Source: Heptranchias perlo
Taxonomy: Eukaryota
NCBI RefSeq assembly: GCF_035084215.1
Contig: NC_090328.1
Coordinates: 93,930,001-93,994,000, forward strand
Reading direction: 5' to 3'
Length of the DNA stretch: 64,000 nucleotides
Position 1 is the first letter of the stretch, and each line of letters begins with the position of its first letter. Below are positions 3,591-64,000 of the stretch, piece by piece. The position numbers were made by a program, and so were the translations under genes. Below the pieces are notes generated by a model. The model ran no database searches. It was not told where the DNA came from and saw nothing but the letters and a program-made list of their open reading frames with translations.

Positions 3591-3879
3591 TTCCACTTTA
3601 ATGAGCGTTAGGTTTTATATCATGCTGCTGCAGCAGGACTCTGCCTGACCGCCAGGTATTTTTCAACCCACATCACCTCTCGCCCCTCTCTCCAACACAT
3701 TTCCCCTCCCATTTCTCCCTCCAGGTACTTTCCAGAACACCCCCTTCTATCCATTCAAGACCCATTTAGGGCCTACCTCCCACCCCTGTACTATTCTACC
3801 TCCATTCCTCGCCGGCACTTCTGAGGTGTTGCAGGCTATTTTACAGTCTAAATGCCTGTGCCTATTTAAATTTTTGTTT

Positions 3880-4220
3880 TTAATTCGTTCATGGGATGTG
3901 GGTGTCGCTGGCAAGGCCAGCATTTATTGCCCATCCCTAATTGCCCTTGAGAAGGTGGTGGTGAGCCGCCACCTTGAACTGCAGTCCGTGTGGTGAAGGT
4001 TCTCCCACAGTGCTGTTAGGTAGGTTCCGGGATTTTGACCCAGCGACGATGAAGGAACGGCGATATATTTCCAAGTCGGGATGGTGCGTGACTTGGAGGG
4101 GAACGTGCAGGTGGTGTTCTCATGTGCCTGCTGCCCTGGTCCTTGTAGATGGCAGAGGTCGCGGGTTTGGGAGGTGCTATCGAAGAAGCCTTTGGCGAGT
4201 TGCTGCAGTGCATCCTGTCG
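3880..4220 (-). mobile_element. Family B LINE 3' fragment
   Basis: Closely matches 1733-2085 along its length. Confidence 0.9.
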
Positions 4221-5162
4221 ATTGTAATTATACTTTGACAGGATCAGCACCGTAACCTGAAGATGAGTCTGCCCAACCTCAGTTCTGAAGATGCAGCAGC
4301 CCCATCAGAATTTCAGGCCCAAAGTCTAACCCCTATTCACTTAAACATGTTGCTGAAAATGCTTTTTGACATGGGTTTCCAAATCCCTTTTCGTACACGT
4401 TTGTTTGAAGGCCAGAGATTCTCAAAGTAAACTGGATTGCAAATCCTTTTGATTAGTTGGTGTAATGTTCATCACTCTTGTATTGGGAGATTTCACTGCT
4501 GGTTTGTTTCATTCCAAATCAGAATATCTGGCTATCTAGTTTTGTTCACTTTTTAAAAAATATTTTTCTCCTCTTATACTTATAAGACAAATTGCCACTG
4601 AAGTGTCAGCTTGAGTCGGGTGGCAATACAAATCTTAATGGTATAAAATGCAAGATTCTGCCATTTGTACATGATATCATTGCAGTGAAAATGACATGCA
4701 GACCTTAACCCTCCTCAAACAACAAAGGGTTTGCTAAAGATTTTTTTAATAAAGGCACTTCCCCATTTTATTGTACTGATCAAAATATTCTCTGAATATT
4801 CTAATGCTATTGTTTTGTTTATGCATTTATACATGATATATTTACCATGGTACATTATTTGTGTAACAGTGAGTAAACAGTTTTGGAGAATCAGTGGAAA
4901 AACATTTATAAGTTAGTGACTGTTGAATTGTGAAACATAAATAGGTAAGCCTGAGCACATGTTCTTTAAGAACACGTCATGAAATAATCCTAAATATATC
5001 AGTTTAGTTTTGCCATCTGAGCCTTGCTCTGAAAATCAAGATGAAGTCCCAATAATAACAATGTAATTACATTGTAATAACACCATAATTACATAAGGTG
5101 ACAGTAATATTTAGGCGTTTATTACACAGTATTTCACTAGTTCTATATAGCTTAAACTATAT

Positions 5163-5895: not shown

Positions 5896-6629
5896 ATTGC
5901 GTGGAGACTAGTGACGTTGCAAGGCTGTAATAAAGATCAATGTAACTGTGTAACTTCATTATTTTTGTTGGCCTCCAAAAATATGCTTCATCTCCTGTAG
6001 TTGAAAATCAGAAATGGTTGATATACCTATTTTGATAGCTGTAACGAACATTCAGGATGTACTGAGTTGAGAGGTTATCTAATAACCAAAGATGCAGTTA
6101 TAAGCTGTGCTATCCATAATACAAATATCTTGGGCACAATTTTAAAAGGAATCTTTGGGACGAGGGGGCAAAGGAAATCGTGTTTTTGAGGAGCGGGCAG
6201 AAATCCTGTAACATGCCTGAGAATGCGCTGGACCCAGAGCCATCTGGGTGCGTGTGCCGTTCCCGAACCTGGAAGTCCTGCTGGCAATTAAGTTAATTGA
6301 AGTATTTGAAATGTGCATAAATCTAATTAACAGCGAAGGCAAGCAATTTCAACGCTGCCTCAGCATGTTTCCCATGCTGTGAAACACACCATGGTGAAGG
6401 AGTCGGGTTTCAGCCGACAGCCATTTGGACATTTAAATGCCTGTTTGACACATGAGGATAAAAGGTGAGTTATTGCAGCAGGGCACTCAGTTCTCTCAAA
6501 CAAACTTTTGGCTGGGAGATCTTTGTTTTTAGACTGAAAATTCTTGGTTTCCACTCAAATGGTCTGTTTGCACATATTTACCAACTTTTCAGACCCCCTC
6601 AAATTGACACCATCAGACTGGGGGGTGCG

Positions 6630-7812
6630 ATGGCTGCATTCACCGGTACATCCGAGGACGAGCAACATCACCATGCTTGCCAAGCACGGCATGCAGTTCC
6701 GCCACTTGGAGTTCCACAACACAATGCTGCGCCACAGGGACCTGCACAAGAGCACAGAGCCGAACAAAAGAGGGAGCGACGTCGCAGGAGGCACTACCCT
6801 CGTCAGAGGTTATACAGACCGAGGCTGAGCTTCCTGGACCTCTCTGAGGAGCAGTGCCTAGGGAGGCTGAGAGTGAGTCGCCAGTGGTCACAGACATCTG
6901 CAGTCTCCTTTATGCCAAGTTGCTCCCGGCTGGGCCTGGCGGCATCTCATTACTCGTCGCAGTTAAAGTGACCACTGCTCTCAACTTCTTCACCTCCAGA
7001 TCATTCCAGGGTGCCACCGGGGACATCACCGGGGTGTCTCAGTCGTCTGCACTCAAGTGCATAAGGTAGGTCACTGACGGCTTGTTTCGCAGAGCCTCGC
7101 AATATGTCAACTTCCCCATGGACGACCTCAGCCAGACAGAGAGGGCAGTGGGATTCCACGCTGTGGCTGGCTTCCCACTTGTACAAGGCGGAATAGATTG
7201 CACGCATCTAGCAATCCGAGCACCTCCACACGAGCCAGGACTGTTCATGAACAGAAAGGGTATCACTCCACTGCTCAGCTCGTTTGTGACCACCGCAAGA
7301 GATTTCTTCACGTGTGCCCCAGATTCCTTGGCAACTGCCATGATTCGTTCTTTTGAGGGAATCCAACATCCTGCCCCTCATACACGTTCTAAATACCTTT
7401 AAGGGCTGGCTCCTCGGGGACAGGGGATACCTCCTGCACACATGACTGATGACACCTCTGAGGGACCCCATCAGCGAGCAATAGCGTCGATACAACGACA
7501 GTCACATCGCCACCAGGTCTATAATTGAACATGCGGTAGGGCTGCTGAAGATGCCTTGATCGTTCTGGGGGAGCGCTTCAATACGGACCAGCGAGAGTGG
7601 GTCGTATTATAGTAGTGTGTTGTGTCCTGCACAACATGGTGCAACAGAGAGGGGTACTGGATGATGAGGTCCCATGCCCTCAACCACTATCCACATTTGC
7701 CATCCGCGTTGAGGAAGAGCAGGAGGAGGAGGACAAACCCATGGGCAGAGCAGCGGCTCACCTGGTTGCTTGTGAGACTAGGGAGTCACTCATATCTGAA
7801 CAGTTCTCGTGA
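6630..7812 (+). pseudogene. Harbinger DDE transposase (DDE_Tnp_4 family), frameshifted with stops
   Basis: Motifs across frames: SFLDLSEEQC, VAVKVTTALNFF, GGIDCTH (D), WLLGDRGY (D), IEHAVGLLK (E), IIVVCCVLHN and an acidic tail. Frameshift near 6890 and stop at 7067-7069. Confidence 0.9.
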
Positions 7813-8101
7813 GTTCAGAAAGTGAGAAAAGTCCAGTCCTCACACCACCTGGAAAGACCAGCGCCCCCCCCAAACCCCTGCACAAAACAGTCCTGCAACT
7901 ACACAGTCACCCACTCAGTGGCATCAAGTGTCACCGTTCATGATGAAGCCCATGAAAGGGCGCTATCACAAAAGCCAGTCAAGAATGGGCAAGATGTGGC
8001 AGTAGTGATGAGAATGATAACATTTAATGTGACTTTAACAAAAAAAATATAAATGAAAAACAGGACAGTCTGTCAGACACCCTTGTGCATACCCTTCGTG
8101 A

Positions 8102-10018
8102 TCACACATCCCTAGCTTTTCTCTTCCTACCGCTTCTACGTGGTGCATCCCCTGTGGCTGCAGCAGAGGTAGTGGCAGGTTGCTCATGTTCATGGCTGGA
8201 CTGCTAAGATGTTTTAGGCCTATGCCCTCTGGGTTTTGGAGCCCGTGAGGGTCTCTCCTAAGACTGCACCTGCACCTGTGCAGGGGCAGACTCGTCCACC
8301 TGGAGAGGAGGCAGCATTGCAGGTACTGGTTGAGAGGGGGGCAACGGGTGAGATGTGAGAGCATTTTCAGTGACGTTGCCATTTCCACGTCCCCTTTCGC
8401 CATCATCCCGCTCCTGGACCAGGCCCACGTCACTCCTACCACCCTGCTGGAGAACAGTTTGTAGGATATGTGATGCTTTGGAAGCCCAGTTGTAAAGTTT
8501 CTGTCTGCCTGTTGAAGGCAGCAGAATGTTGTTCACCGTGAGTCTGCACGGCCGTTGTCAGGGCCTGAATGCTCTCATTTGTGAGCTGTGCTTGAAGCTC
8601 AACGGAAGCTAGCCTTCTATCCATCACAGACATTTCCGCAGTAACCTGCAACATTACCTCAGACAGTTCTTCACGTCTCTGTGACACTATCAGAGATTCC
8701 CTCCAGTACCTGTGACGCTATTTCACTAATGCAGGAGTTGGACTCCTCCATCCTCTGCGCTATTGTGGAGAGTGTTCATGGCACCTGTTCCAGTACCTCA
8801 CAAATGTGCTGCTGTCCCTCGATCATTCTCCTTTTAAAGAATGGTCCCCGGGGATCAGCATCTGCATCCAGCTGAGCAGAGCCTGGAGAGGAGTGCGCGT
8901 GCCGACATGGACTCGCCACAAACTGCTGCTACCACCAGTGTCTGCTCGTGCTCACTTGTGTGTAGTGACTCACCAGGTGCTAACCCAATTAACTGACTAC
9001 TAGGACCCACTGAGGTGTGAATATCTGCGCTGGTAGATGGCTCGTTATGATGTGACAGTGCACCCTCAGAGGCTGGGAGCTCCTCTGAGGAATCGCCCGC
9101 TGCCGTCACTGCGGTCGTTGAAGGGCCTGTAAGAGAACAGAAGGCAATATTAAGCATATTTCAGTAGCTGAAGCGAGACATGATACGATGAGAATATTGA
9201 GGTGTTCAACATGCCAAGCATTGTTAACATCAATTCATGTTGTGTGTGATGAATGTTAAAGTTGTGTTACCAGACCTTTGTGGGGTGCCAGTCTCGGCGT
9301 TCCCAACGGACAGGCACTCGAGGGTGTGGCTGATCTGCAGGGCCCCCTCCTCCACGTCTGTGAGGACCACTATTTGTTGTGGCCCCCCCTCCAGTCCTCG
9401 CGCTCTCGTGTGCATTTTGCGCTCTCTTTTAGAAGGGGAGAAAAAATTCAGACGTGTGAGTGAGTGATGGTGAAGTGGCCAAGCGATGAATCCTTTGCTT
9501 TGGGTGAGGCTGACCGTGAAAGAGATGCATCAGAGGGTGAGTATGAGACAGAGTCATCATATTGGATCAGGATTGGGGTGAATGGTAGTGGTGGGGTCAC
9601 AAATGGGGAGGTCAGGAAGTGCAGGTAAGTTGAGAATGAGCCTTAAGTGGGTGTGAGGAATGATGTGATGGAGTAGTCTTGGCAGTGCAGAATGAGTTGG
9701 GGGGTGGGGATGGTGATGTGCACCACAGAATGCAGGAGAATCATTAAATGTACTCGCTTTTACTGACCTAGTTAGGTCATTGAAATGCTTCCTGCACTGG
9801 ACCCAAGTGCAGGATATGTTGCTGCTGCTGGTGACCTCCTCTGCCACCTCGAACCAGACCTTCTTAGTGGCAGAGGCAGGGCACTTCCTCCTATCGGCCG
9901 GGTAAAATAGTTTCCTCCTCCTCCTCACCCTGGCCAATAGCAGCTGAAGTGAGGCATTGTTGAATCTTGGAGCAGCCAAGACCCAAGGTCTTCTTGCTCT
10001 TTGCTGCAGCAAATCCAC
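8102..10018 (-). pseudogene. Harbinger Myb/SANT DNA-binding protein gene, three exons, decayed
   Basis: ORF 9557..10018 reads APRFNNASLQLLL...KKVWFEVAEEVT...TWVQCRKHFNDL. Later exons read GGPQQIVVLTDVEEGAL and GPSTTAVTA..., collinear with copy 2. Confidence 0.88.
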
Positions 10019-10779
10019 TGGAGTAATGGCCCTTTAAATCCAGACGCTCCAGCTGACAGCCTGTCATGCGAGTGCTCAGTCCACCCACTGCGCAGCTTTC
10101 GGACGGCAAACTTGGAAACAAGGCTAAGGGCCACCAATTGAGTCGTGGGGAATGGTAAGGTTTTATTAGTCGGGTTTGCCATGAACCCATTGACCCCCCG
10201 CCCCGCTGCCATCCTGCCGCCCTTTTAAAATCAAGCCCATTGTGTATTGTAGCTGGTGCTCTGTTCTTTGGTAAAGATTGAGATTACAATGACTGCCCGG
10301 TTAAAAATATCTACTTTTGTCAATTCTCTCTCCTCAATTATTGCATTGTTTTCTGAATAATGAAAAGCAACCCAATACATACAGTGCATAATATGCAAAG
10401 GATGTGCTTTGAATAAAGGATGCACCATTTATTTGTCTTCTAAAAAGGTATTCAACATATAATAGCACTTAAAATTTTTCATCAAACAGCTTGTTAAATA
10501 TGCATGTTTGAAGAGCATTTTTCCAAGTTGAAATCCTCTTTGATGCTTTTGTGGCTTACACCCTGTGACCTTATGTTATGAACTATTAAAGTGATTTGGA
10601 AATTAAATGTTTTCATGAATATTACAATAGAATTGTAAATAGACGTCCTCATTCAAATTATTTTTTTGTGTGCATTTATGCTGATCAATACTGTTTCTTT
10701 AAAGCTGATACATCATTTCCAACAAAACCTGGTCTGTGTAACAGTTGACATTAAATAAAGGGTATGTTGTAATTAAGAC

Positions 10780-11640
10780 TTAGAATCATAGAAAATTTAC
10801 GGCACAGAAGGAGGCCATTTAGCCCATCGTGTCCGCGCCGGCTGAGAAACGAGCCACTCAGCCTAATCCCACTTTCCATAGCCCTGCAGGTCACGGCTCT
10901 TCAGGTGCACATCCAGGTATTTTTTAAATGAGTTGAGGGTTTGTGCCTCTACCACCCTCTCAGGCATTGAGTTCCAGATCCTCACCACCCTCTGGGTGAA
11001 AACATTTTTCCTCATTGCCACTCTAATCCTTCTACCAATCACTTTATGTCCATGTTCCCTGGTTACCGACCCCTCCACTAAGGGAAATAGGTCCTTCCTA
11101 TCCACTCTATCTAGGCCCCTCATAATTTTGTACACCTCAATCAAATCATCCTTCAGCCTCCTCTGTTCCAAGGAAAACAACCCCAGCCTATCCCATCTTT
11201 CCTCATAGCTAAAATTCTCCAGTCCTGGTAACATCCTTGTAAATCTCCTCTGCACCCTCTCCAGTGCAATTACATCCTTCCTGTAATGTGGTGACCAGAG
11301 CCATGCGCAGTACTCAAGCTGTGGCCTAACTAGTGTTTTATACAGTTCCAGCATAACATCCCTGCTTTTATATTTTATGCCTCGGCTAATAAAGGAAAGC
11401 ATTCCATATGCTGCCTTAACCACCTTATCTAACTGTCCTGCTACCTTCAGGGATCTGTGGACGTGCACTCCAAGGTCCCTCACTTCCTGTACACCTCCCC
11501 GTGTCCTCCCATTTATTGTGTACTCCCTTGCCTTGTTTGCTCTCCCCAAATGCATTACCTCACACTTCTCCGGATTGAACTCCATTTGCCACTTTTCTGC
11601 CCATCTGACCAGTCCATTGATAACTTCCTGCAGTCTACGG
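10780..11640 (-). mobile_element. CR1 LINE 3' fragment (ORF2 C-terminus, 3' UTR, ATTCTATG-type tail)
   Basis: ORF 10863..11585 reads FNPEKCEVMHLGR...RDLGVHV...LYKTLVRPQLEYC...ERVQRRFTR. Tail tagaatcatag at 10781. Confidence 0.93.
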
Positions 11641-12793
11641 CTTTTCTGTTAGCTCAGCTCAGCTTAGCTTATGTTACAGTTGTACTACTGTTGACCTGCC
11701 AAAATAATCTGTTTTTAAAAAAATTTATTCCCTACATTTAAAAAAAAATAAAATCAAGAAATATCTTTGTTACTGATCCACCACTGTCATTTCTGATAGC
11801 AGTTGGCTGAAGAAACTGGAGATGTACATTCTCGTATGCACCTGATCCCCTCTCCCCCCACCTGAATTTCCATGCAGTGCATCATGCAGAGAAAGTTTAA
11901 CTACCACATCTGTGACCACATGTAACCCTTAGAGTACAGAACCTCACAGGTCTGAAAGTCCACGAATTGCATCCCTGATCTCATCATTTATAAGTGATAG
12001 ACTTCAACTATTACAACAGCTTACATTTCTATAGTGCTCCTCGTATCAAAAGATACAGGTCAGAGTGCAATGTAGAGTTGGTGGATATCTCCACCTTGTT
12101 AAATGGATGAGATGGCCACCAATATAAAATGGCACCTCAACATGCCCAGAATCAACATAACGCTGAATGAAATCAAACCAAGAATCTCTGACCAACTGAC
12201 TGGAAAAAAGACAGTTGTAACAAAGTTCAGTTGATACATATCAACTTTAGGATCTTGAAAATCACTTGTACAATAATAATTTGAAGCTGCTGAAACTCCC
12301 AGAGTGGAGGGTATGCCCCTTTTTGGAGCTTTCTTCCATAGGTGTTGAAATTAACACTGAGCAATATTCCTTTTTGCATCATTTTCTGGACTTTTCTAGA
12401 ATTGATCTAGAACAAATACCAATTCCAAAACCATTATTTCACCATCTTGAACTAAGTTACTCCCTTCTCAGTAACACAAAAAAGTAAGATATTGGAATTC
12501 ACTGAGGTGAGATGAATCAGAGCTCAGCAAACTTGAAAGGGTCAGGAAAAAACCAGAAGGAATGTTGGTTGTTGTACATGAAGTCCCTTGCTTATCTCCA
12601 GTGACCATGAGGGATGAAAGTAGTGCACCTTCATTCCAGCCAAGCACTGAGGTTCTGTATTTTTTTAGAAGACTGAGTTTCAAATAAGCTGATTATAAAA
12701 ATATATATATATACACTTATGCAAATTCAGCTCCTTATTTAAGAAACTGCTACTGAAGTGGTTCATTTGATAGCAGACTCACCTTTGAAGTTC

Positions 12794-13635
12794 CAGATAA
12801 TGAAGCAGTCCGTGCCCGCATATAGCAAGACCTGGACAACATCCAGGCTTGGGCTGATAAGTGGCATGTAACATTCGTGCCAGGCAATGACTATCTCCAA
12901 CAAGAGAGTGTCTAAACACCTCCCCTTGACATTCAACGGCATTACCATCGCCGAATCCCCCACCATCAACATCCTGGGGGTCACCATTGACCAGAAACTT
13001 AACTGGATCAGCCATATAAATACTGTGGCTACAAGAGCAGGTCAGAGGCTGGGTATTCTGTGGCGAGTGACTCACCTCCTGACTCCCTAGAGCCTTTCCA
13101 CCATCTACAAGGCACAAGTCAGGAGTGTGATGGAATACTCTCCACTTGCCTGGATGAGTGCAGCTCCAACAACACTCAAGAAGCTCGACACCATCCAGGA
13201 CAAAGCAGCCCGCTTGATTGGCACCCCATCCACCACCCTAAACATTCACCACCGGCGCACCGTGGCTGCTGTGTGTACCATCCACAGGATGCACTGCAGC
13301 AACTCGCCAAGGCTTCTTCGACAGCACCTCCCAAACCCGCGACCTCAACCACCTAGAAGGACAAGAGCAGCAGGTATATGGGAACACCACCACCTGCACG
13401 TTCCCCTCCAAGTCACACACCATCCCGACTTGGAAATATATCGCCGTTCCTTCATTGTCGCCGGGTCAAAATCCTGGAACTCCCTTCCTAACAGCACTGT
13501 GGGAGAACCTTCACCACACGGACTGCAGCGGTTCAAGAAGGCGGCTCACCACCACCTTCTCAAGGGCAATTAGGGATGGGCAATAAATGCCGACCTCGCC
13601 AGCGACACCCACATCCCATGAACGAATAAAAAAAA
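12794..13635 (+). mobile_element. Family B LINE 3' fragment
   Basis: ORFs 12887..13090 and 13127..13573 match 1790..2485; ends atgaacgaataaaaaaaa. Confidence 0.9.
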
Positions 13636-14332: not shown

Positions 14333-14620
14333 TAACTGTCCTCTCTCTAGCAGTCTTTAAAACTGTAAAATATAAAATTCCGCTCAGCAGCCACTCAAGT
14401 CCAACTAACTGGAATTAAAATGATTTTTAATTTTATTAACACTGGCAATGAATTGTATCTTAACAGCACTGATACAATAAAAACCTGCTGCATTTTTTTT
14501 AAGAAAAGTCATTTCTGTCTTATGTTGCTCCAGGTAACTGACCTCTCTCCGGCTGTATTTAAAGCTGTAAAATACAAATTCTGCTCAACAGCCATTCGAA
14601 GCCAACTAACTGAATTAATA
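14333..14620. repeat. Diverged direct repeat, about 85 bp, period about 202 bp
   Basis: taactgtcctctctct...ccaactaactggaatta at 14333 matches taactgacctctctcc...ccaactaactgaatta at 14535. Confidence 0.8.
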
Positions 14621-14740
14621 AAATTAAAAATAATTGAACACGTTATCCCAACCGTTGTGTACAGCGGGCAAATCACGTTTGCACGAATGTGCCTGCTATA
14701 AGCAGTGGGACGTACTGCATTTAAAGGTGAGCAATTACTC

Positions 14741-15458: not shown

Positions 15459-18400
15459 ATTGGTTTTCCTTTTAGAATCTTGTTGCTTTTAAATGATGCT
15501 GTGGTGTAGCGTGCATTAGCTTTTCACTGCAAACATGAGTAACTGCAGTCAATACAAACTGACTGCAGTTCCCTAGGTTCCCTCGTACGCATCTTAAAAT
15601 GGTGCAGGAAGCACAATTTTCCTCCAACTCAAAACAAAATGTTTTCCCTTACGTCTATAACCCCAACTGCATAGACCTGCCCAAGAGTTAACACTAAGAT
15701 CAAGTCTGATTTCTCTTTACAATAGTTCTACCGGGCATTTTTCCAATTAATTTGCTGCTGCAAACATTAACAATCACTTTTCCTACTGTTATGCAAATCT
15801 GTATTAAGATCACATACATATGTGTTGATAGGTGATAGGGACAAATGTTTTCCTGCACACTCTTGTGATTATCAGCTGTGCTGCTTGTTCTATTGCTGTT
15901 ATTGTTCTGAGGGATGCTTTTCAAGTTGACTTGTCAATGTGATTGCACCACGTTACTGAAATCTGCTGGCCTTTGATCAAAGCCTTGTCTTTATGTTACA
16001 GAAAACCACTTGCGTAAACTGGAATGTGCCTATTTGTAACAGTGGTGCATTGTAGTTGGAGTTTGTGTAATTTTCTCCATTTTAATTTGGTTGTACTCAT
16101 GGAAGATCTGCATATAACACTACATTCTCGCAGCCCACTTGTAACAGTTGGGACTGTGTAGGGAAAAAACAGTGCTCTTGATGTGATAGTCTACTACCCT
16201 CCAGCATATTGTTACTGAATGTGCAAAAGGAAAAAATCAAACCGGGTAAATGCTCTTGCTCCAACCAGCAAATAGGAAACAGCTGACAAGTCATAATGAC
16301 GGCAGCATTACTCATTTATTTTTAATAAGCATCACCATGGCAAACGTTCTCCAGAGGGAGGGGGTGGGGTTGTCACTATCGAGCTCAAGTTATTTTGCAT
16401 TCATGCTGGCTATGAAGAGTAGTGCCAAACAGATGCAAAGAATGGTTGGTTTCTAGCACCAATACTGATACACAAGCTTCAACTTCAGTAAATTCTACAT
16501 GACAAATTGCTGAGGAATTGATCCAAAGTATCAGAATAAATAACTGAACTTGCCATTGAATAATCCTGGCATCAGTACTAATAAAGGGAAAGCTATGATT
16601 GTGATGGTGTCATTTTGTGGCTAAGTCCAGAGAAAACATATTCTTCAAGCGACTTCTCGGGCTGTTGAAAATTATTATATTACATCTGAAGTATTATCAC
16701 ACTTGTCAACATTATAAAACTTTCAAAAGTTTTTTTGAAAAGGGAATATTTTTATTCATAAAAACTTAAGGATAACGTCATTGTAAGGTTTTATAATACT
16801 AACATTTCCTGTGACATTGTTCACTGTGAAGCAGAGGATGCAGCCTGGGATCGTTCTCTGTGATCCTACCTAAAATCAGACAGGATCGTGGTGGAGAATG
16901 AAGGAAAAGATGGGCGGTGAGGTTTACTGCTGCTTCACTGCCCAACCTGTATCTCCCTTCCCCATCTGCTAAATGATGGAGGAGGTATCTGGGTGGGTGG
17001 AGGGGGGGTGCAGAGCGCAGGGGTATTCCCTCCTATTCCCCTGCTCCTGACACTTCCCGGGACTGCCATGGGGAAGGTAGCAGTAGGCCCCAGGAAATGG
17101 CTGTAATGGTCTTGAAATCCACCCAAGGAGGGAGAGGGCCTTGTATTAGCCTCCTCCCTCTCCAGTCTGGCCTCCAGTTGCCTTCTAGTGTAGGCTTTGG
17201 TCTCTCCCAATCTTCCAGTCTTTGGGATGCTTCTGCCCCTTTAACTGCCCACTCGCCTCTTATGGTTCTCGAGGAAACCGGATCGGGGTTCCAATGGGGG
17301 CCAGAGGAATGGAAAGAAGACCCACCCCATCAGAATGCTGCTGGGAGGATAATACCTGGCCATAATGTTTTATAACCTTGGGTTATGAACAAAATGAGAT
17401 GGGGAAAGTATGAAAGTCTATCATGGGAGAGTGTATCATATTACAGGAAGTAAGTGTGACAATTATAGGCAACGTATGCTATGTATGCACTTTTAATATA
17501 TTAAGTAGAAGATAAGACATGTTAATGTGTGGCTGGAGATATGGTGCAAGAGGGAGGGCTTCAGATTCCTGAGGCATTGGGACCAGTTCGGGGGTAGGAG
17601 GGATCTGTTTAAGATGTACGGGTTGCATCTCAACATAGCTGGGACCAGTGTCCTCGCAGGGAGGTTAACTAGTGCTGTGGGGGAGGGTTTAAAATAATTT
17701 GGCAGGGTGATGGGCTCCTGGATGAAACATTAGAGAGGTGAAACAAGGTGCACACAGGGCTGTGAAAGGCAAATAGCACGAGTAAAGAATAGTTCAGAAA
17801 TGGGAGGGATTAGACTGGGGGCAAATGCGAGGCAGTCTATAGTCACCACTTTGCACTGTGATATAGTAGCAATGACACAGACCTGGCTCAAAGAAGGGGA
17901 GGATTGAGAACCTAATATTCCTGGCTACAAGGTATTCAGGAAAGATAGGGAAGAAAAGAAGGTGGAGGGGGTTGGCAGTATTGATCAGAAAAACTATTAT
18001 GGCACTGGAAAGGGATGATGTAGTTGAAGTGTTAAAGACAGAATCTATTTGGTTAGAATTAAGGAGCAGTAGAGGAGCTATTATGTTATTGGGTGCATAC
18101 AATAGGCTACCAAATAATAGGAAGGAGATGGAGGAGCAGATTTGCAGGTAAATTATAGAAAGATGCAATAACTATAGAGTAGTGATAGTGGGGGACATCA
18201 ATTATCCCAATATAGACCGGGATGGTAACAGTGTAAAGGGCAAAGATGGGGAGAAATTCCCGCAATGTATACAAGAGAACTTTCTTGATCAGTGTGTTTC
18301 CAGCCCAATGAGGAAGGAAGCAGTGCTGGATCTAATTCTGGGGAATGAAGTACAGTATATTTCAGTGGGGGGGCATTTGGGGAACAGTGATCATAATATC

Positions 18401-20225
18401 ATCAGGTTTAAAATAGTTATGGAAAAAGACAAGGAACAATTAAGCATAAAAATACTTAACTGGAGGAGGGCTCACTTCAGAGAGTTAAAAAGGGATCTTG
18501 CCCAGGCGGATTGGAATCAGAAATTGTTAGGCAAAACAGTAATTGAACAATGGGAGGCCTTCAAGGAGGAGATGGTTTGGGTACAGAGTTGACACATTCT
18601 CACGAGGGGGAAAGGAAGAGCATCCAAAGCTAGAGCTATCTGGAGGACTAAAGATAGAGATTAAAATGAAACAGAAAAAGGAGACTTATGATAAATTCGA
18701 GTTCATAATATGGTAGAGAACCAAGCTGAATACAGAAAGTACAGAGGAGATCTAAAAAAGGAAATGAGGGCAAAGAGAGAATAGATTGTATGAGAATAGA
18801 TAAAAGGGAACCCAAAAGTCTTTTATAACCATATGAAGAGTAAAATGATGGTCAAAGGAAGGGTGGGGCAGATTAGGGACAAAAAAAGTCATCTTGTGGA
18901 GGCGGCGGATATGGCTGAGGTAATAAATGAATGCTTTGCATCGGTCTTCACTTGAGAAGTACAATGTAACAGTAAAGGAGGAGGTAGCAGTGATACTGGA
19001 TAGGATAAAAATAAAGAGGAAGTACTTAAAAGGTTGACAGTACTCAAAGTAGAAAAGTCACCTGGTCCAGATGGGATACATCCTAGGTTACTGAGGGAAG
19101 TAAGGGTGGGAAATTGTGGAGGCTCTGGGCAGAATCTTCCAATCCTCCTTAAATATGGGAGTGGTGCCAGAGGACTGGAAGATTGCAAATGTTACACCCC
19201 TATTCAAAAAAGAGGAGAGGGATAAACCCATGAATTACAGGCCAGTCAGCCTAACGTCGGTGGTGAGGAAACCTTTAGAGACAATAATCCAGGACAAAAT
19301 TAATTGGCACTTGGAAAAGTATGGGCTAATAAATGAAAGTCGGCACGGATTTGTTAAAGGCAAATCGTGTTTGACTAACTTGATTGAGTTCTTTGACGAA
19401 GTAACGGAGAGGGTTGATGAGGGCCATGCGGTCGATGTGTATATGGACTTTCAAAAGACATTTGATAAAGTACTATATAATAGACTGGTTAGCAAAATTA
19501 AAGCCTATGGGATTAAAAGGACAGTGGTAGCATGGATACAAAATTGAATAAGGGACGGAAAGCAGAGAGTAGTGATGAACGGTTGTTTTTCATGATTGGA
19601 AGGAAGTATACAGTGGTGTTCCCCAGGGATTGGTATTTTTGATATATATTAATGACCTGGACTTGGGTATACAGGGTATAATTTCAAAGTTTGCAGATGA
19701 TACGAAACTCGGAAATGTAGTAAACAATGTAGAGGATAGTAACAGACTTCAGGAGGACATGAACAGACTGGTGAAATGGACAGACACATGGCAGATGATA
19801 TTTAATGTAGAGAAGTGTGAAGTGATACATTTTGGTAGGAAGAACGAGGAGAGGCAATATAAACTAAATGGTACAATTTTAAAGGGACTGCAGGAACGGA
19901 GAGACCTGGGGTTGTATGGACACAAATCTTTGAAGGTGGCAGGACAAGTTGAGAAAGCTGTTTAAAAAAAAGTATATGGGATCCTTGGCTTTATAAATAG
20001 AAGCATAGAGTACAAAAAGAAAGGAAGTTATGTTAAACCTTTATAAAACACTGGTTAGGCCTCAGCTGGAGTATTGTGTTCAATTCTGGGCACCACACTT
20101 CAGGAAAGATGTCAAGGCCTTAGAGATGGTGCAGAAGAGATTTACTAGAATAGTGCCAGGGATGAGGGACTTCAGTTATGTGGAGAGACTGGAGAAGCTG
20201 GGGTTGCTCTCCTTGGAGCAGAGAA

Positions 20226-20522
20226 TTGTAAACAATTTACAACACCAAGTTATAGTCCAGCAATTTTATTTTAAATTCACAAGCTTTCGGAGGCTTCCTC
20301 CTTCCTCAGGTAAATGTTCAGGAGCTCCTTTTTTTTAATACTTTTTTTTAAACAGCTTTCTCAACTTGTCCTGCCACCTTCAAAGATTTGTGTACATTTA
20401 CCTGAGGAAGGAGGAAGCCTCCGAAAGCTTGTGAATTTAAAATAAAATTGCTGGACTATAACTTGGTGTTGTAAAATTGTTTACAATTGTCAACCCCAGT
20501 CCATCACCGGCATCTCCACATC
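20226..20522. mobile_element. Penelope-like element terminus in inverted-arm configuration
   Basis: Arm 20224-20317 is the reverse complement of 20394-20488. 12-bp TSD tggagcagagaa at 20214-20225 and 20523-20534. The same terminus recurs at 63965-64000. Confidence 0.75.
20402..20430 (+). ncRNA. Minimal hammerhead-ribozyme-like motif of Penelope-like repeats (mirror copy at 20281-20309, minus strand)
   Basis: CTGAGGA-A-[GGAGG aag CCTCC]-GAAA-GCTT gives the CUGANGA core, stem II, GAAA and a palindromic short stem III. The cleavage triplet is non-canonical. Confidence 0.5.
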
Positions 20523-21904
20523 TGGAGCAGAGAAGGTTAAGAGGAGGTTTGGTGGAGGTGTTCAAAATCATGAATTGTTTTGTTAGAGTAAATAAGGAAA
20601 ATCTGTTTCCAGTGGACACAGATTTAAAGTGATTGGCCAAAGAACAAGAGGCGACATGAGGAAAAACATTTTTTGACACAGAGAGTTGTTCTGATCTGGA
20701 ATGCTGTGCCTGAAAGGGTGGTGGAAACAGATTAACAGATTCAGTAGTAACTTTCAAAAGGGAATTGGATAAATACTTGAAGGGAAAGAATTTACAGGGC
20801 TGTGGGGAAAGAGCAGGGGAGTGGAACTAATTGGATAGCTGTTTCAAAGAGCCAGCACAGGCACGATGGGCCAAATGGCCTCCTGCTGTGCTGTACCTAC
20901 TATGATAACTCAGGTAGCGTTGCTCATTTTGGAGTCAGAAGATATGCTGTTTGATGCGTGCGTTATGAACAAAGTGTAATAAGGAAGGTGTGTCAGGGAA
21001 ATCGCAATCCACCGTGTCTGCTATACACAAGTTTTTAAATATATTGTAGGGGATCTCTGTAGCGCTGCACATGGAAAGCTGTAGCAAACTGTCTTTTTCT
21101 TGTCTTGCCTGTCGTCTTTATGTTGCCTTTTGTGTCTCCCTCTTCTCGTTGCCTCCCACCTTTCATCTTCATTTGTGCTTTTCTCTTTATTTTTCTTCTT
21201 TATTACATTTTTTTTGTTTCTCATTCTTCTTTCCTTTTCAGGTAGAGCTGGTAGGTCATGTGACCTGACCTGACACACAGTGGATTTGGGGTCAGGGGTG
21301 GAAGGAGGGATCTAAGCTGGGTTGGAGGCAGGTTGAGGTTCACAAGGTAAGGGAGGGGTGAAAGAATGTCATCTTTCCCCTGCACCTGTGATACTTCACT
21401 CTTAATGCTCTGATATTCCCATCACCTTTCCTACCCCTTCCAGTTGCAACTTCCCTCCATCCTTCCCAAGATAGCTTTTTCCATCAATGAGCGGTGTTCC
21501 ATTCTCAGCTTGTAGCACTACAAACAAAACTGTATTTTAAAGAATAAATTGCCACTTTCACTGGCAAAGAGGGAGCAGGAGAGCATGAACAGGGTGAAGT
21601 CTACAAGCTGGCGAAGAAAGAAGTGGGGGCTACAGGGAGGGAGAGCGGGAGCTGGAGTGCAATGGCCCGAGGTTTGGCAAAAGCAAGGAGCTCAAGATAT
21701 GGTGAATCCTGCTCACTGGCTGTCGCACCCTCAGTCCCTTATTTCTGCCCCTCTGTCTGTCTAAATCCCCTGGTTTGACTCCCAGAGCTCTTAATTTAAA
21801 GCGCTATGTTCTATTTATAGCATATAGTACTGTAAGTGGAGTATTGGACTTTGAACAAGAAACTTTTTTTATATGTAGTTTTCTCAACCCAAAGACTGGT
21901 AAAA

Positions 21905-33030: not shown

Positions 33031-33133
33031 GGAAATGTGCCCACTTCAGCAACAGTCCTACCTACATCTTTCTCATGCCCTCCACCAATACACTTCCATT
33101 GACAATGCCTTAAATCTTCTACACAACTCTAAT

Positions 33134-33937
33134 GTGGGGAAATGTGAGGTTATTCACTTTGGTAGGAAGAATAGAAAAACAAAATATTTTTTAAATGGTG
33201 AGAAACTATTAAATGTTGATGTTGAGAGAGATTTGGGTGTCCTTGTACACAAATCACAGAAAGTTAACATGCAGGTACAGCAAGCAATTAGGAAGGCAAA
33301 TGGTATATTAGCCTTGCAAGGGGGTTGGAGTACAAGAGTAAGGACGTCTTGCTACAACTGTACAGGGCTTTAGTGAGACCACACCTGGAGTACTGTGTAC
33401 AGTTTTGATCTCCTTACCAAAGCAATGATATATTTGCCTTAGAGGCAGTCCAACGAAGGTTCACTAGATTGATTCCTGGGATGAGAGGGTTATCCTAATG
33501 AGGAGAGATTGAGTAGAATGGGCTATATTCTCTAGAGTTTAGAAGAATGAGAGGTGATCTCATTGAAAAGTATAAAATTCTTAGAGGGCTTGACAGGGTA
33601 GATGCTGAGAGGTTGTTTCCCCTGGTTGGAGAGCCTTGAACTAGGGGGCATAGTCTCAGGATAAGGGTTCGGCCATTTAGGACTGAGATAAGGAGGAATT
33701 TCTTCACTCAGAGGGTGGTGATTCTTTGGAATTCTCTACCCCAGAGGGCTGTGGATGCTCAGTCATTGAGTATATTCAAGGCTGAGATCAATAGATTTTT
33801 GGACTCCAGGGGAATCAAGGGATTATGGGGATCGGGCAGGAAAGTGGAGTTGAGGTCGAAGATCAACCATGATCTTTTGAATGGCGGAGCAGGCTCGAGG
33901 GGGCCTTATGGCCTACTCCTGCTCCTATTTCTTATGT
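33134..33937 (+). mobile_element. CR1 LINE 3' fragment inserted in the old Harbinger
   Basis: Reads KCEVIHFGRKN...RDLGVLV. Apparent TSD aactctaat (33125-33133) and aactccaat (33938-33946). Confidence 0.92.
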
Positions 33938-46761: not shown

Positions 46762-46872
46762 TCATCCAGCCCATCTGAGAAGCTTTCTCATCCAGCCCAT
46801 CTGAGAAGCTGTCTCATCCAGCCCATCTGAGAAGCTTTCTCATCCAGCCCATCTGAGAAGCTTTCTCATCCA
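46762..46872. repeat. 26-bp minisatellite x4.3 within an old CR1-like 3' end
   Basis: Unit tcatccagcccatctgagaagctttc; one substitution in unit 2. Confidence 0.95.
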
Positions 46873-49516
46873 AGTCCTGTTTCAAGATCCAATCTAATCT
46901 TTATTTCTGTAAAAATGTACTGAATCGGTAATTGATCCAGTTCACTTTAGAATGTTTTAATGGAATCAATATTAACTACACTAGATAGAAGGCTATTACA
47001 TAAGTATAGTCTGCTGTATGAGTAAAGAAGGCTAAGCATGAAATAATTATTCCTTATGCTAAATTTAGCTCATGACTTTCTCGGTTTACAATCCTGTCCT
47101 CTGGTTCTTCTATCATGATTTTGCACAAAGTACTTCTCTAAATCTGTCTTATTGATTCCCTTCATTATTTAAAGATATTGGGGGCAGGGTGGGTTAAACA
47201 CGGGCCTTTCAAATCTAGGATGAAAGCTTCCTCTATCTGCTGGATGTAAGTGATCATATATGAAATGAGTTGGTGCAAACTCGGCCCAGTTACTAATAAG
47301 AGTACGGCACCAAATTATCAAACTCACTCAGAGAGGCCACGATGGCTAGTGAGTAAAATGGGAAAATGTCATTTGTGGGCAGTAAGGGCTGTTCTTCTGA
47401 GGTTAGGATTGAGGCATAGTTTTATTCTGCATCTAATTATGCTATAGCTAACCTGAGAGTGGTTACTGCTGATGGTGGGTCCCCAAAATTGCAAGTGCTA
47501 CATTTCCTAGCATTAACATTCTGCACCTTAATAAGCACACACATTCATACAAAATGTCATTGAAAAGAATAGAATCATATCCCCTTTAATCTTGTAATGA
47601 GAATGTCATTATATAATGAAAGCAATGATTAGGCTGTATGAATACCACACACTGCATAACACATTTCCATGAACTATTTTTAACCAGCCCCATTATTTAA
47701 ATGAGCTTGAGGTTACTCTTCCCCACTATCTGTTTCATCCACTACATTCTTCTGCGTTGCTATCTCAATCTTTCAGTTGTAATAGATTTCTCCTTTTTCC
47801 CTCTTCCTCATCTCCATTTCTCTGATTTGGCTCCAAAATTCTTTGACTTGGAAGGGCACTGGTGGAGCTTAAGCAAAGTGGGGTGGGGGTGGGGGTGGGG
47901 TGGACATCAGAATATAATGATGCATTGAGCATGTGTGAAACTATTAGTGCACTTGTACTTTTGGGTCAGATTTCAGTCTCTGTGAAAGCATCCAGCCAAA
48001 CGTGATTTTTTTTCCCCCTGTTCTTGGCTATGCATCCTACAAAAGCTGTAATTTTGCCACTTAAAAGGGTCATACCGATTAATTCAACCATACTCTATGG
48101 ATATCAATCGAAATCTACTAATGTTGACTGTTTGGCCCCTCCACAAGCTGTACAGTTGATTGTGTGGCCCAATAACAAAATGGATTCAGGCAAAGGAAAT
48201 ATGACATTTTAACCTCAAATGAGTGCAAATATCTGAAAGACAACTTGCCCAGGGATAGATGCAGTTTTACTGCCTTCTCACACTCTGCATGTAAAATCAA
48301 GGAAAGGGCACAAAGAGATGTATTATGAACGATAATTCAGTCCTGGTGAGATCTGGATTAATGCTTCCACTGGAGTGAAATTGCTGCAGCTCTTTGCTTT
48401 AGCTGTGGAAGATGAGAAAAGTAAATGAGAAACGAAAGAACTGAATAAAGAGAGGGAAATTAGAGATGACAGCAGTATCTCATGAAATGAAAGGACTGTC
48501 ACAGCATGCAGGTAAAAAAATGAATGATAGTATTGTTAAGAAAAGTGAATTTACAATGAAACTAATATAGAAAGGCTAGTTTAACTTCCAGTACAATTGA
48601 AATTCTGCTTGTATTTAACATCGTCTTGTTTCACAATGTAATACAGTCTATTTGATTCAAATTCAAATATTATGTTTTGATTACTAATCACAGAGGTTCC
48701 ACTCATAATGCAGCTGGTAAAAGGAACTAATTGGTATGTTTGGACCACTAACTGCAGTAAATATAAAATAATGGACATTTGGAGTGAGTTATGAAACTGA
48801 AACCTGATTGAAAGATTCCTAAGACATGCATATAGTTTGCAAAGTCACTGGAACTCTGAGATTTGATTCATTCTTAACTTACTCATTTTACCTTTACGTA
48901 TTCGGACAAGTTTCACGCCTTTGTGCTGTGGTGCAGAGCTACATTCGTTGGATGAGCACAGAGGTCAGCAAACCATGCCAGGATTTTATGCCCTTTCATT
49001 TTAATGGATGTAAAATCCTGCAGTGCCAACTGACCTACTCAGATCTGAGTCTGAACTGAATTCTCAAAAAGCACTGCCAGCACATGAAGCTCTGTACCTG
49101 GATGGAAGGTCCTGTTGTGTGCGGTGACCTTCGGGCTCGAATTTGTAAGTTCTACCATAAGGTATCCACTTTTTTTGTATTTTCTTTCTCACCTGCTCCT
49201 TACGTCTCCGAAACCTAACAAGCAATTCCCTGACTAAGAGGGTAACAAGGTACCCTGCTGCCCGCAGATATCTGGGGCTCAATTTTAAAAGGGCGGTGGG
49301 ATGACAGCGGGGGAGTCAATGTGCATGCGACAAACCCGACTAATAAAAACTTACCATTCCCCACGCAATCGAGACTTAATTGGTGGCCATTAATTTGGTT
49401 TCCATGTTTGCCGACCGAAAGCTGTGCAGTGGGTGGACTGAGCACTCGCGTGACAGGCTGTCAGCTGGAGCGTCTGCTCCAATGGATTTTGCTGGAGCAA
49501 AGACCAAGAAGACCCA

Positions 49517-51455
49517 ATGGGGCACAGGGGCAAGGCTGCTCCAAGATTCAGCGATGCCTCACTTCAGCTGCTTCTGGCCAGGGTGAGGAGGAGGAGGAGG
49601 GAACTATTTTACCCGGCCGACAGGCGGAAGTGCCCTGCCTCCGCCACCAAGAAGGCCTGGCTTGAGGTGGCAGAGGAGGTCACCAGCAGCAGCAACATAT
49701 CCTGCACTTGGGTCCAGTGCAGGAAGCGTTTCAATGACCTAACTGGGTCAGCAAAAGTAAGTACACTGACTGATTCTCCTGCATCCCGTGGTGCATATCA
49801 ACCTTCCCCCTCCCCCTCACATTCTGCACTGCCAAGCCTACTCCATCACATCACTCTTCACACCCATTTAAGGCTCATCCTCAACTTACCTTCATTTCCT
49901 GAGCACTACCTCACCTCCCCATTTGTGACCCCACCACTACCACTCACCCCAGTCCTGATCCAATGTGATGACTCTGTTTCATACTCACCCTCTGATGCAC
50001 CTCTTTCACGGTCAGCCTCACCCAAAGCAATGCATTCATCGGTTGGCCACTTCGCCATCACTCACTCACACGTCTGTACTTTCTCCCCTTCTCGGAGAAG
50101 AGAGCACAAAATGCACTTGAGAGGGTGAGGACTGGAGGGGGGGCCACAACAAATAATGGTCCTCACAAATGCAGAGGAGGAGGCCCTGGAGATCAGCCGC
50201 ACCCTCGAGTGCCTGTCCATCGGGGATGCCGAGACTGGCACCCCACAAACGTCTGGTGACACAACATTAACATTCACCACGCACAACATGAATTGATGTT
50301 AACAATGATTGGCATGTTGAACACCTCAGTATGCTCATCGCAACGTGACACATCTGTGATGATGCTTAATATTGCCCTCTGTTCTTTTACAGGCCCTTCA
50401 ACAACCGCAGTGACGGCAGAGGGCGATTCCTCAGAGGAGCTCCCGGCCTCTGAGGGCGCACCGTCACATCTTAGCGAGCCATCCACCAGCGCAGATACTC
50501 ACACCTCGGTGGGTCCTAATAGTGAGTCAGTTGGGTTGGCACCTGGTGAGTCACCAAACACAAGTTAGCACAAGCAGATGCTGCTGGCACGGACAGCTGT
50601 GGAGAGTCTGCATCGGTGGGCACACTGTTCTCCGGACTCTGCTTAGCTGGACGCAGATGCTGAACCCCTGGGGCCATCCTTTAAAAGGAGAATGATCGAG
50701 GGAAGCAGCACATTTGCAAGGAACTGGAACAGATGCCACGCACACTCTCCACAATAGCGGAGAGGATGGAGGAGTCCAACTCCTGCATTAGTGGAATGAT
50801 GGCACAGGTACAGGAGGAAATCTCTGAGATAGTGTTGCACGTAACTGCTGAAATGTCTGAGAAGATGTCGCAGGTAACTGTGGAAATGTCTGAGATAGTG
50901 TCGCAAGTAAGTGCGCGAATGTCTGCGATGGAGAGAAAGCTAGCCTTCGTTGAGCTTCAAGCACGGCTCACAAATGAGTCCATTCAGGCCTGGAAAACGA
51001 CCATTCGGACTCACGGTGAACAACATTCTGCCGCCTTAAACAGGCAGACAGAAGCTTTACAACTGGGCTTCCAAGGCATCACACATGTCCTCCAAACTGT
51101 TGTCCAGCAGGGTGGTAGGAGTGATGTGGGCCTCGTCCAGGAGAGGGATGATGGCAAAAGGGAACATGGAAGTGCTGATGTCACTCAAAGCGCTCCCATG
51201 TCTCACCCGTTGCCCCCCTCTCAACCAGTACCCGCAATGCTGCCTCCTCTCCAGGTGGCCGAGTCTGTCCCTGCACAAGTGGAGGTGGAGCAGTGTTTGG
51301 CAGGGCCCTCATGGGCTCCGTAACCCAGAGGGCCTAGGCCAAAAGCATCTAAGCAGTCCGGCCATGGACATGAGCAACCTGCCACTACCTCTGCTGCAGC
51401 CACAGGGGATGCACCACATAGAAGTGGTAGGAAGACAACAGCTAAGGATTTGTGA
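49517..51455 (+). pseudogene. Harbinger Myb/SANT protein gene, exons about 49517-49756, 50095-50255 and 50393-51455
   Basis: Reads MGHRGKAAPRFSDASLQLLL...KKAWLEVAEEV...QCRKRFNDL then |GTAAGT; exon 3 acceptor ttcttttacag|. In-frame stops at 50566, 50644 and 51321. Confidence 0.9.
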
Positions 51456-51739
51456 TCACGAAGGGTATGCACAAGGGTGTCTGACAGACTGTCCTGTTTT
51501 TCATTTATATTTGGTTTCTGTTAAAGTCACATTAAATGTTATCATTCTTACCACTACTGCCACATCTTGCCCATTCTTGACTGGCTTTTGTACTGATGCC
51601 CTTTCATGTGCTTCACCATGAACGTTGACACTTGATGCCACCCAGTGGGTCACTTTACAATGGGTGTATGTGTAGTTGCAGGACTGTTTGGTGTTTCTCC
51701 TGATCCTGCTCCTCCTCAATGTGGATGTCAGATGTGGAT

Positions 51740-53949: not shown

Positions 53950-54993
53950 TGGATGGTGGATAGGACATGGCGCCTCTTCAACCGGTAATCCTCTCTGTTG
54001 CGCCATATTGTGCAGGACACAACACACTACTATAATGCGACCCACTCTCGCTGGTGCGTATTGAAGCGCTCCCCCAGAACGATCGAGGCACCGAAATTGC
54101 ATCTTAAACAGCCCTATTGCATGTTCAATTAAAGACCTGGTGGCGCTGTGACTGCCGTTGTATCAACGCTGTTGCTTGCTGATGGGGTTCCTCAGAGGTG
54201 TCATGAGCCATGTGTGCGGAGAGTATCCCTTGTCCCCGAGGAGCCAGCCCGTAAGGGTGTTCGGCGCGTGGAAGTGGCCCGGGTTGTTAGATTCCCTCAG
54301 AATGAATGAATTGTGGCAGCTGCCAGGGAATCTGGCGCAGAGGTGAAGAAATCTTTTTCGGTGGTCCAAACGAGCTGAGCATTGATGAAGTGATATCCTT
54401 TCTGTTGATGAACAGTCCTGGCTCATGTGGAGGTGCTTGGATTGCTATATGCGTGCAATCGATTGCACCCTGTACATGTGAGAAGCCAACCACAGAGTGG
54501 AATCCCACTGCCCTCTCCATCTTGCTGAGGTCGTCCATGGGGAAGTTGACGTATTGCCAGGCCTTGCGAAACAAGCCATTGTTGACCTGCCTTATGCACT
54601 TGTGTGCAGATGACTGACAGAACCTGGAATGATCCGGAGACGAAGAAGTGGAGGGCAGTGGTCACTTTAACTGCGACGGGTAATGAAATGCCGTCAGGCC
54701 CAACCAGGAGCAGCTTGACATGAAGGAGGCTGCAGGTGTCTGCGACCACCTGGCGACTCACTCTCAGCCTCCGTGTGCGCTGCTCATCAGAGAGGTCCAG
54801 GAAGCTGAGCCTCGGTCTGTCGAGGGTACTGTCTCCTGCGACGTCGCTCCCTCTGTTGTTCCCCTCTGTGCCCTTGTGCAGGTGCCTATGGTGCAGCACT
54901 GTGTTGTGGAGCTGCAAGTGGTGGAAGTGCACGCCATGCCTGGTGACGATGGTGATGTTGCTCGTCCTCGGATGTACTAGTGAATGCAGCCAT
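53950..54993 (-). pseudogene. Harbinger DDE transposase, copy 2 (C-terminal tail displaced to about 51690-51739)
   Basis: SFLDLSDEQ, LPVAVKVTTAL, GAIDCTH, ARFPGSCHNSFIL, GDKGY, IEHAIGLFK, CCVLHN; several frameshifts. Confidence 0.9.
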
Positions 54994-63964: not shown

Positions 63965-64000
63965 TGATGTGGAGATGCCAGTGATGGACTGGGGTGCACA
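63965..64000 (-). mobile_element. Penelope-like terminus, cut by the window edge
   Basis: Reverse complement of 20488-20522 (ccccagtccatcac(c/t)ggcatctccacatc). Confidence 0.75.

Follow-up and report, generated by a model that had tools for sequence, protein, structure and literature searches.

A probable Penelope-like inverted insertion in a dead LINE, with copies of flanking DNA at its palindromic centre

The insertion and its host LINE

The DNA analysed here, which we call the window, is a 64-kb stretch (64,000 nucleotides) of the Heptranchias perlo genome. It contains a dead LINE that is interrupted by an insertion and resumes collinearly behind it (Table 1). In the LINE, the Pfam family Exo_endo_phos_2 matches 18152-18589, and RVT_1 matches above cut-off over 19104-19544 and below cut-off over 19579-19962. 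Its closest named relatives are RT proteins of Callorhinchus, Leucoraja and Hypanus, with 5 named cartilaginous-fish matches among the best 19 of 120 listed, the remaining 14 of these being unnamed. The LINE is probably of CR1 type, a clade with an APE endonuclease and an RT in ORF2 whose members are placed by RT phylogeny; the EN and RT pieces here are those identified by Pfam. The host reading frame can be followed across the interruption, as LLSLEQR before the insertion and EQRRL after the right target site duplication (TSD).

The two TSD copies are identical at 12/12 positions, as the initial annotation of this DNA had reported, and they enclose 297 nt. That annotation also described two inverted arms of about 95 bp. 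These are indeed present: 20224-20317 and 20394-20488 align with 94 identities, no mismatches and a single 1-nt gap in an A-run, and the end of the TSD doubles as the first 2 nt of the left arm (20224-20225). Between the arms lies a spacer whose description as a perfect inverted copy of 19920-19975 was likewise accurate. Positions 20338-20393 are its exact reverse complement (56/56), and the match reaches 60 nt if one mismatch is allowed (19916-19975 against 20338-20397; BLAST E 3e-24). The source belongs to the RT-to-C-terminal part of the host LINE, ending 238 nt and starting 294 nt upstream of the TSD. The 64-kb window holds only two exact inverted repeats of at least 20 nt that are at most 1 kb apart, and both are part of this structure, so that a chance origin is excluded. 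The insertion is real. It has no coding function and is a single non-functional scar inside a dead LINE.

Table 1. Features of the insertion and of the surrounding LINE (window positions)
Feature	Position	Strand	Remarks
Host LINE, 5' part up to the insertion	18121-20225	+	dead (stop codons, frameshifts); approximate start
Template of the long copy	19920-19975	+	3-nt insertion with in-frame stop at 19963-19965
Template of the short copy	19962-19972	+	A-run within the long template
Left TSD	20214-20225	+	12 bp, exact repeat
Left arm: inverted, tail-less Penelope-like pLTR fragment	20226-20317	-	microhomology of 2 nt to the end of the TSD
Minimal type I hammerhead motif, left arm	20275-20315	-	minus-strand descriptor match; positions obtained by mirroring the right-arm motif
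Arm extension, with a perfect 10-bp palindrome at its end	20318-20329		palindrome 20320-20329, centre between 20324 and 20325
Templated copy 1 (T-run)	20328-20338	-	reverse complement of 19962-19972, 11/11; first 2 nt common to the palindrome
Templated copy 2	20338-20393	-	reverse complement of 19920-19975; 1 nt common to copy 1
Right arm: sense Penelope-like pLTR fragment	20394-20488	+	first 4 nt against the continuing template: 3/4
Minimal type I hammerhead motif, right arm	20396-20436	+	descriptor scan; centroid fold gives helices I and II
Right-arm hammerhead, helix I	20396-20401/20431-20436		core 20402-20408; extra base 20409
Right-arm hammerhead, helix II	20410-20422		core 20423-20426; 2-nt helix III loop
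Tail, 34 nt, right arm only	20489-20522	+	between right arm and right TSD
Right TSD	20523-20534	+	12 bp, exact repeat
Host LINE, collinear resumption to the 3' end	20535-20905	+	end approximate

A probable Penelope-like origin

A custom hammerhead descriptor matched two sites in the window, one in each arm, and none in 20 shuffled windows. At both sites helix I pairs at 6/6 positions, the CUGANGA core and GAAA are present, helix II has 5 bp, opens with a G-C pair and is preceded by an extra base, and there is a palindromic helix III region with a UH site. In the right arm the cut is predicted after 20430. The minimal hammerheads of Penelope elements are described by the core, an extra base before helix II, G10.1-C11.1 and a palindromic 15.2-16.2, and pairs of them occur on opposite strands, about 100-700 bp apart (PMC4209133). 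All four of these traits are present in the two putative ribozymes of the arms. A search of Rfam gave no hammerhead among 15 matches (E up to 5), all of sub-gathering score. Its miRNA matches were also sub-threshold and reflect the long hairpin only, and we rejected a miRNA or sRNA reading. The folding z-scores for one arm were -1.81, -0.26 and -1.06. Folding energy alone gives the candidate ribozyme no support; the anatomy of the motif argues for it.

Penelope elements carry a tail of 30-40 nt at one end only (PMC8557442, PMC3846280), and the one-ended 34-nt tail of the insertion falls within that range. The sole other trace of the family in the window is a second tail of 35 nt, clipped by the window end (63966-64000, minus strand), which matches the first at 32/35 positions and ends on the same base. 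The insertion further agrees with Penelope copies in being inverted, 5'-truncated and head-to-head, with a short TSD and without poly(A). The Penelope protein of Anolis cleaves and extends both strands and has two RT start sites, a tail apart, at 111-118 nt after stem II begins (PMC11167929); here, stem II begins 113 nt before the 3' end.

We found no ORF with a telomerase-like RT or a GIY-YIG endonuclease in the 297-nt insertion and no full copy of the element in the 64-kb window. Bacterial and archaeal genomes, scanned twice for carried-over host DNA, gave 0 matches to the family. Non-LTR retrozymes, which consist of tandem head-to-tail units with a hammerhead in each (10.64898/2026.07.22.740005), were considered and rejected, as the 5 TRF rows include no tandem hammerhead array. 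The locus very probably holds, judging by its sequence, a doubly truncated head-to-head Penelope-like copy that works like one. The Penelope-like identity first proposed for it thus gains support from the hammerhead, the one-sided tail and the head-to-head arms.

A local template, probably copied twice

The source of the spacer carries an extra stop codon that is absent in 5/5 relatives aligned there (four named proteins and one window copy, with a sixth sequence lacking coverage at this place) and is reproduced in the spacer. Because the spacer carries this lesion, its template was most likely this very copy of the dead LINE. The proposal of a local genomic template, already made in the initial annotation, is supported by the shared stop and by a source less than 300 nt away. 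The spacer agrees with two further LINE copies of the window at only 41/56 and 38/56 positions. The aligned relatives are distant ones, and near-identical LINE copies elsewhere in the genome are a less likely template.

The T-run noted earlier next to the spacer is present, and it is itself an exact copy of 19962-19972, so that the flank would have been copied twice. We regard the run as likely, rather than certainly, a separate templated copy, because the 11-mer is of low complexity and recurs once by chance, at an unrelated position of the window (41059). We disfavour reading the T-run as what is left of a poly(A), or as untemplated, since the C and the AA beside the source run are part of the match (11/11). 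Most simply, a short round of copying would have been followed by a slip of about 13 nt and then by a long round. Also rejected was a cDNA that primed itself on its own complement upstream, which would regenerate arm rather than flank; arm sequence is not seen there.

At the far end of the spacer the junction is hybrid, with base 20394 agreeing with the arm and not with the present source base. The source codon at this exit encodes glycine, whereas 4/5 aligned relatives have valine, so the exit microhomology is 3/4 or 4/4.

A possible interrupted palindrome

The 10-bp palindrome that ends the arm extension, described as 11 nt long, is in register with the axis of the arms, given 2 missing nt. 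When the left half is mirrored at its centre, it predicts 20325-20329 exactly and then the right arm from 20394, with 2 nt absent. Swapping the 64-nt insert for 2 nt yields a perfect 198-bp palindrome. Read in this way, the insertion would equal a perfect 198-bp palindrome in which 2 nt have been replaced by 64 nt of templated DNA. Palindromes of at least 10 bp end within 1 nt of 277/63800 window positions (0.43%) and those of at least 8 bp within 1 nt of 1.4%, frequencies that were computed after the palindrome had been spotted and do not amount to a pre-set test.

Palindromes are reported to be common at the inverted junctions of Penelope elements (PMC3846280), and the 10-bp junction palindrome found here may be encoded by the element or be left over from the other arm. 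The centres of perfect palindromes rearrange at high rates, and spacers of 35-52 bp stabilise such palindromes (PMC8701086). As a DNA hairpin, the mirror form has a computed energy of -117.5 kcal/mol, and the longer observed form one of -107.7.

Age

The spacer and its source differ at 0/56 positions, which bounds their pairwise divergence at 5.2% or less (95% bound), and the pooled sites (0/162) lower this bound to 1.8% or less (95% bound). At the mutation rate of the epaulette shark, a species other than the host (7e-10 per generation; PMC10587355), these bounds correspond to about 37 million (0/56) and 13 million (0/162) generations. The perfect match had been taken to imply a very recent event, an implication that does not hold with divergences of up to 5.2% and 1.8% allowed. 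Set against the host LINE the event is young, but these identities give upper bounds rather than an absolute date.

Proposed order of events and alternatives

We favour, at about an even chance, a sequence of events in which a perfect palindrome formed first, a break or stall occurred near its centre and a host polymerase then filled the lesion by snap-back synthesis. To begin, a Penelope-like enzyme would nick both strands of the dead LINE 12 nt apart. Each 3' end would be extended into cDNA, from the distal start (which includes the tail) on one strand and from the proximal start (no tail) on the other; alternatively, a single cDNA may have folded back on itself. The anatomy of this step is visible at the locus, and its chemistry is probably that described for the Anolis protein (PMC11167929). 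The arms would then be closed at the short palindrome 20320-20329 into a larger one of about 2 x 99 bp with zero spacer, and a hairpin or cruciform would lead to a break or a polymerase stall 5-7 nt to the right of the centre. In a last step, the top-strand 3' end would prime by 2 nt on the top strand about 350 nt upstream, copy 9 nt, slip back by about 13 nt and copy about 55-60 nt more, before an imperfect match of 4-7 nt let it anneal to the right arm, with a loss of about 2 nt. The template and the two copied segments stand in the DNA; from them we infer the order of copying and the kind of enzyme. This would be a host polymerase, engaged either in polymerase-theta-type end joining or in a template switch at a stalled fork, and the two are equally possible. 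The spacer would now break the symmetry and thereby stabilise the insertion.

Features of the junction argue for this order. The palindrome remnant, being in register, favours a repair that acted on a perfect palindrome already in place, and the same reading is supported by the mirror image of the left half, which extends exactly into the junction by 5 nt and picks up again at 20394 with only 2 nt absent. In addition, the two overlapping copies from one A-run, with overlaps of 1-2 nt, match iterative, minimally primed synthesis. Insertions made by polymerase theta are iterative, minimally primed and generally shorter than 25 bp (PMC12426944), and snap-back synthesis has been described with priming within about 30 bp of the break (PMC5728401). 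The exit junction agrees with the mirrored right end at 5/7 positions, a level reached at 17/708 upstream positions. Polymerase-theta-like repair had been suggested from the outset, and the second copying round speaks for it, although the size of the insert and its distance from the source are atypical.

Several points count against the favoured order. A copy of 56 nt taken from about 350 nt away exceeds the usual range of polymerase theta. Short-range switches at forks have a median of 12 nt and were sought only within 100 nt (PMC7954356), and among 118 centre rearrangements of a mouse palindrome, 93% were deletions (PMC8701086). The same product would also arise if the palindrome is encoded by the element and two cDNA ends stopped near it. 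Finally, the reading is built on one locus only.

The main alternative, which we consider a serious possibility though less likely than not, is that the filling took place at integration. With two cDNAs, one per nick, that could not be directly joined, the top cDNA end would have primed on the upstream target DNA and been extended in two rounds, by the RT of the element or a host polymerase, before annealing to a shorter bottom cDNA, and the insertion would never have been a perfect palindrome. The Anolis protein cleaves and extends both strands and has two start sites (PMC11167929), only one arm of the insertion is tailed, and stem II begins 113 nt before the 3' end, compared with 111-118. 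Locally templated DNA is known from 22 cases of L1 insertion (10.1101/2024.08.27.596794) and 3 further ones (PMC11702581), and the TSD is intact. There are also 0 substitutions between the arms, between the TSD copies and between spacer and source; with none anywhere, the sequence gives integration and repair no separation in time. However, both cDNA ends would have to stop within 2 nt of the mirror register, or else a self-complementary end of 8-10 bp would have been bypassed for a 1-2 nt primer 350 nt away. The templates of L1 insertions, moreover, typically lie within 15 bp (10.1101/2024.08.27.596794) as against 238-294 nt here.

The initial annotation had placed the copying during integration. 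This is one of the two timings, but the in-register palindrome remnant favours a later repair. Its further idea, that a nascent strand switched from element RNA to genomic DNA and back to RNA, is unsupported: because the arms point opposite ways on opposite strands, no single strand returns to RNA, and the copy bridges two ends.

There is a slim chance that the template or the direction of copying was another. The bottom strand could have invaded the left flank or the sister chromatid at 19916-19919, with copying running rightwards from there, or the RT could have jumped to a nascent transcript. The longest microhomology, at 20394-20397, could be a priming site rather than an exit (3/4, or 4/4 if source base 19919 changed later, valine being found in 4/5 relatives), and the overlaps at the junctions fit both directions equally. 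Invasion, however, requires the strand that resection would remove, the opposite end would then be closed by merely 1-2 nt of homology, and an RNA template finds no apparent sign here of transcription of the dead LINE.

An assembly or library artefact, in the form of a fold-back chimera at the hairpin, is very improbable. Long palindromes are hard for PCR and nanopore sequencing (PMC8701086), but the host LINE is collinear beyond an exact TSD, the insert consists of two copies, offset from each other, with a hybrid junction at the exit, and two orientation switches within 65 nt would be needed, dominating the consensus. We give practically no credence to the spacer being cargo of the source element, that is, of a master copy with a captured LINE, and to its nearby match being a coincidence: Penelope elements can hold host DNA between their pLTRs (PMC3846280) and the aligned LINE relatives are distant and not of the same subfamily, yet the 56/56 identity includes the in-frame stop insertion absent in 5/5 relatives, the other LINE copies in the window match at only 41/56 and 38/56, and the source is less than 300 nt away.

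Significance

Host repair of a preformed Penelope palindrome, the order of events that we favour, combines ingredients that are each known, namely templated insertions and repair at palindrome centres; the literature searched, of partial coverage, did not show the two combined in Penelope elements. Nor did it show a Penelope palindrome whose centre had been filled from a local template in two rounds, and closer precedents may exist. The building and closing of inverted Penelope structures are still described as undefined (PMC8557442, PMC11167929). The insertion is a one-off repair scar, useful mainly as a clue to how Penelope elements finish inserting, and it keeps all of its junctions at base resolution: the TSD, two RT start points, the palindromic centre and the two-round fill.

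We also offer a conjecture that we think unlikely to hold in full. Head-to-head Penelope insertions of cartilaginous fishes may routinely be closed through a palindrome upstream of the hammerhead, be fragile and be defused by the host through snap-back synthesis. If this is true, such insertions would be born as perfect 200-bp palindromes and be defused by long-range, iterative copying of the flank. Many of their centres would then preserve, like fossils, the way in which Penelope integration is finished, and small inverted duplications would recurrently arise from them.

Comparison with known systems

The closest structures for comparison are Penelope-like elements with inverted pLTRs, represented by Pen2a_Av (PMC3846280), the scheme in PMC8557442 and the Poseidon element PAc (PMC11167929). 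Like these, the insertion has head-to-head 5'-truncated arms, a pLTR that contains a hammerhead, an inverted junction with a palindrome and a 30-40 nt tail on one end only, and its TSD is short as well (12 bp here and 8-10 bp in the rotifer). It differs in having no ORF and no second, direct pLTR, and in a junction that is split by 64 nt of local DNA. Neither AT-rich sequence nor the ATT motif that PAc prefers is present at its nick sites.

The templated insertions of L1 (10.1101/2024.08.27.596794, PMC11702581) are similar in that nearby genomic DNA has been copied into an insertion flanked by TSDs. Shared as well are a template under 250 bp and an inverted arm primed by microhomology at the second nick. 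The present insertion belongs to another class of element, holds its insert at the junction between the arms and has its template 238-294 nt away rather than within 15 bp. In L1 twin priming, a single RNA with poly(A) gives rise to two cDNAs, from neighbouring parts that hardly overlap (10.1101/2024.08.27.596794), with a median overlap of 22 bp, whereas the arms here repeat about 95 nt of the same RNA region. Twin priming of the L1 type was rejected for this insertion, given arms that overlap over 95 nt and no poly(A).

With polymerase theta and snap-back SD-MMEJ (PMC12426944, PMC5728401) the locus shares an inverted copy of the flank, priming by 1-2 nt, repeated rounds and a closing join by short microhomology. 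It departs from typical polymerase theta products in the length of the copy (56 nt as against less than 25) and in its distance from the template (about 350 nt as against about 30). The spacer appears to work like a polymerase theta templated insertion, yet its size and distance keep us from classing it as one.

Stabilisation of palindromes by breakage at the centre (PMC8701086) likewise involves an asymmetric change a few nt off the centre that leaves a spacer behind. Whereas the products of such breaks are mostly small deletions in mouse transgenes, the change seen here is an insertion, templated and almost without loss, into a palindrome of about 200 bp that belongs to a natural retroelement. 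Four-point template switching (PMC7954356), finally, also makes a reverse-complement copy of nearby DNA and then returns; its copies have a median of 12 nt within a 100-nt search, while this locus combines two switches with a longer range.

Source base at the exit junction

The spacer of the Penelope-like insertion carries a reverse-complement copy of nearby sequence from the host LINE, a dead CR1-type element. At the exit junction of this copy, host LINE positions 19916-19919 encode a glycine, while valine is found in four of the five aligned relatives. The junction base in the insertion matches the likely ancestral state, so it may be the source that mutated, after being copied.

Within the 3' part of the host LINE, an 8-nt unit is tandemly duplicated at 20725-20740, and the first of the two units belongs to a 12-nt stretch whose exact inverted counterpart lies at 20600-20611. 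The LINE also has, at 20599-20625 and close to a frameshift, an inverted repeat whose 13-bp arms are separated by a 1-nt loop.

Possible alternative fold of the hammerhead RNA

The extension that follows the left arm can pair, through 20320-20324, with the helix II sequence at 20298-20302. This pairing gives the RNA a second predicted fold, in which the hammerhead would be disrupted; the first computed fold differs.

Other repeats in the window

The tail of a second Penelope-like copy (32/35 identical) occupies 63966-64000 on the minus strand, where it is cut off by the window end.

Further mobile elements and repeats in the window
Feature	Positions	Description
~4-kb repeat, two copies	6295-10238 vs 49275-55331	opposite orientation; ~84% identical; Myb/SANT-like ORFs
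LINE 3' end other than the host LINE's, three copies	1723-2589, 3870-4226, 12794-13633	89-92% identical
Additional LINE pieces bearing RT	10863-11648, 33130-33640, 51864-53532	
Direct repeat, two copies	14333-14418 and 14535-14618	83%; spacing ~200
Exact inverted match, near the direct repeat	14423-14439 and 14615-14631	17 nt
Tandem array, young	46762-46872	26-nt unit; 4.3 copies; matches 97%

The ~4-kb repeat is probably Harbinger-like, and its second copy is split by a LINE at ~51700-53950.
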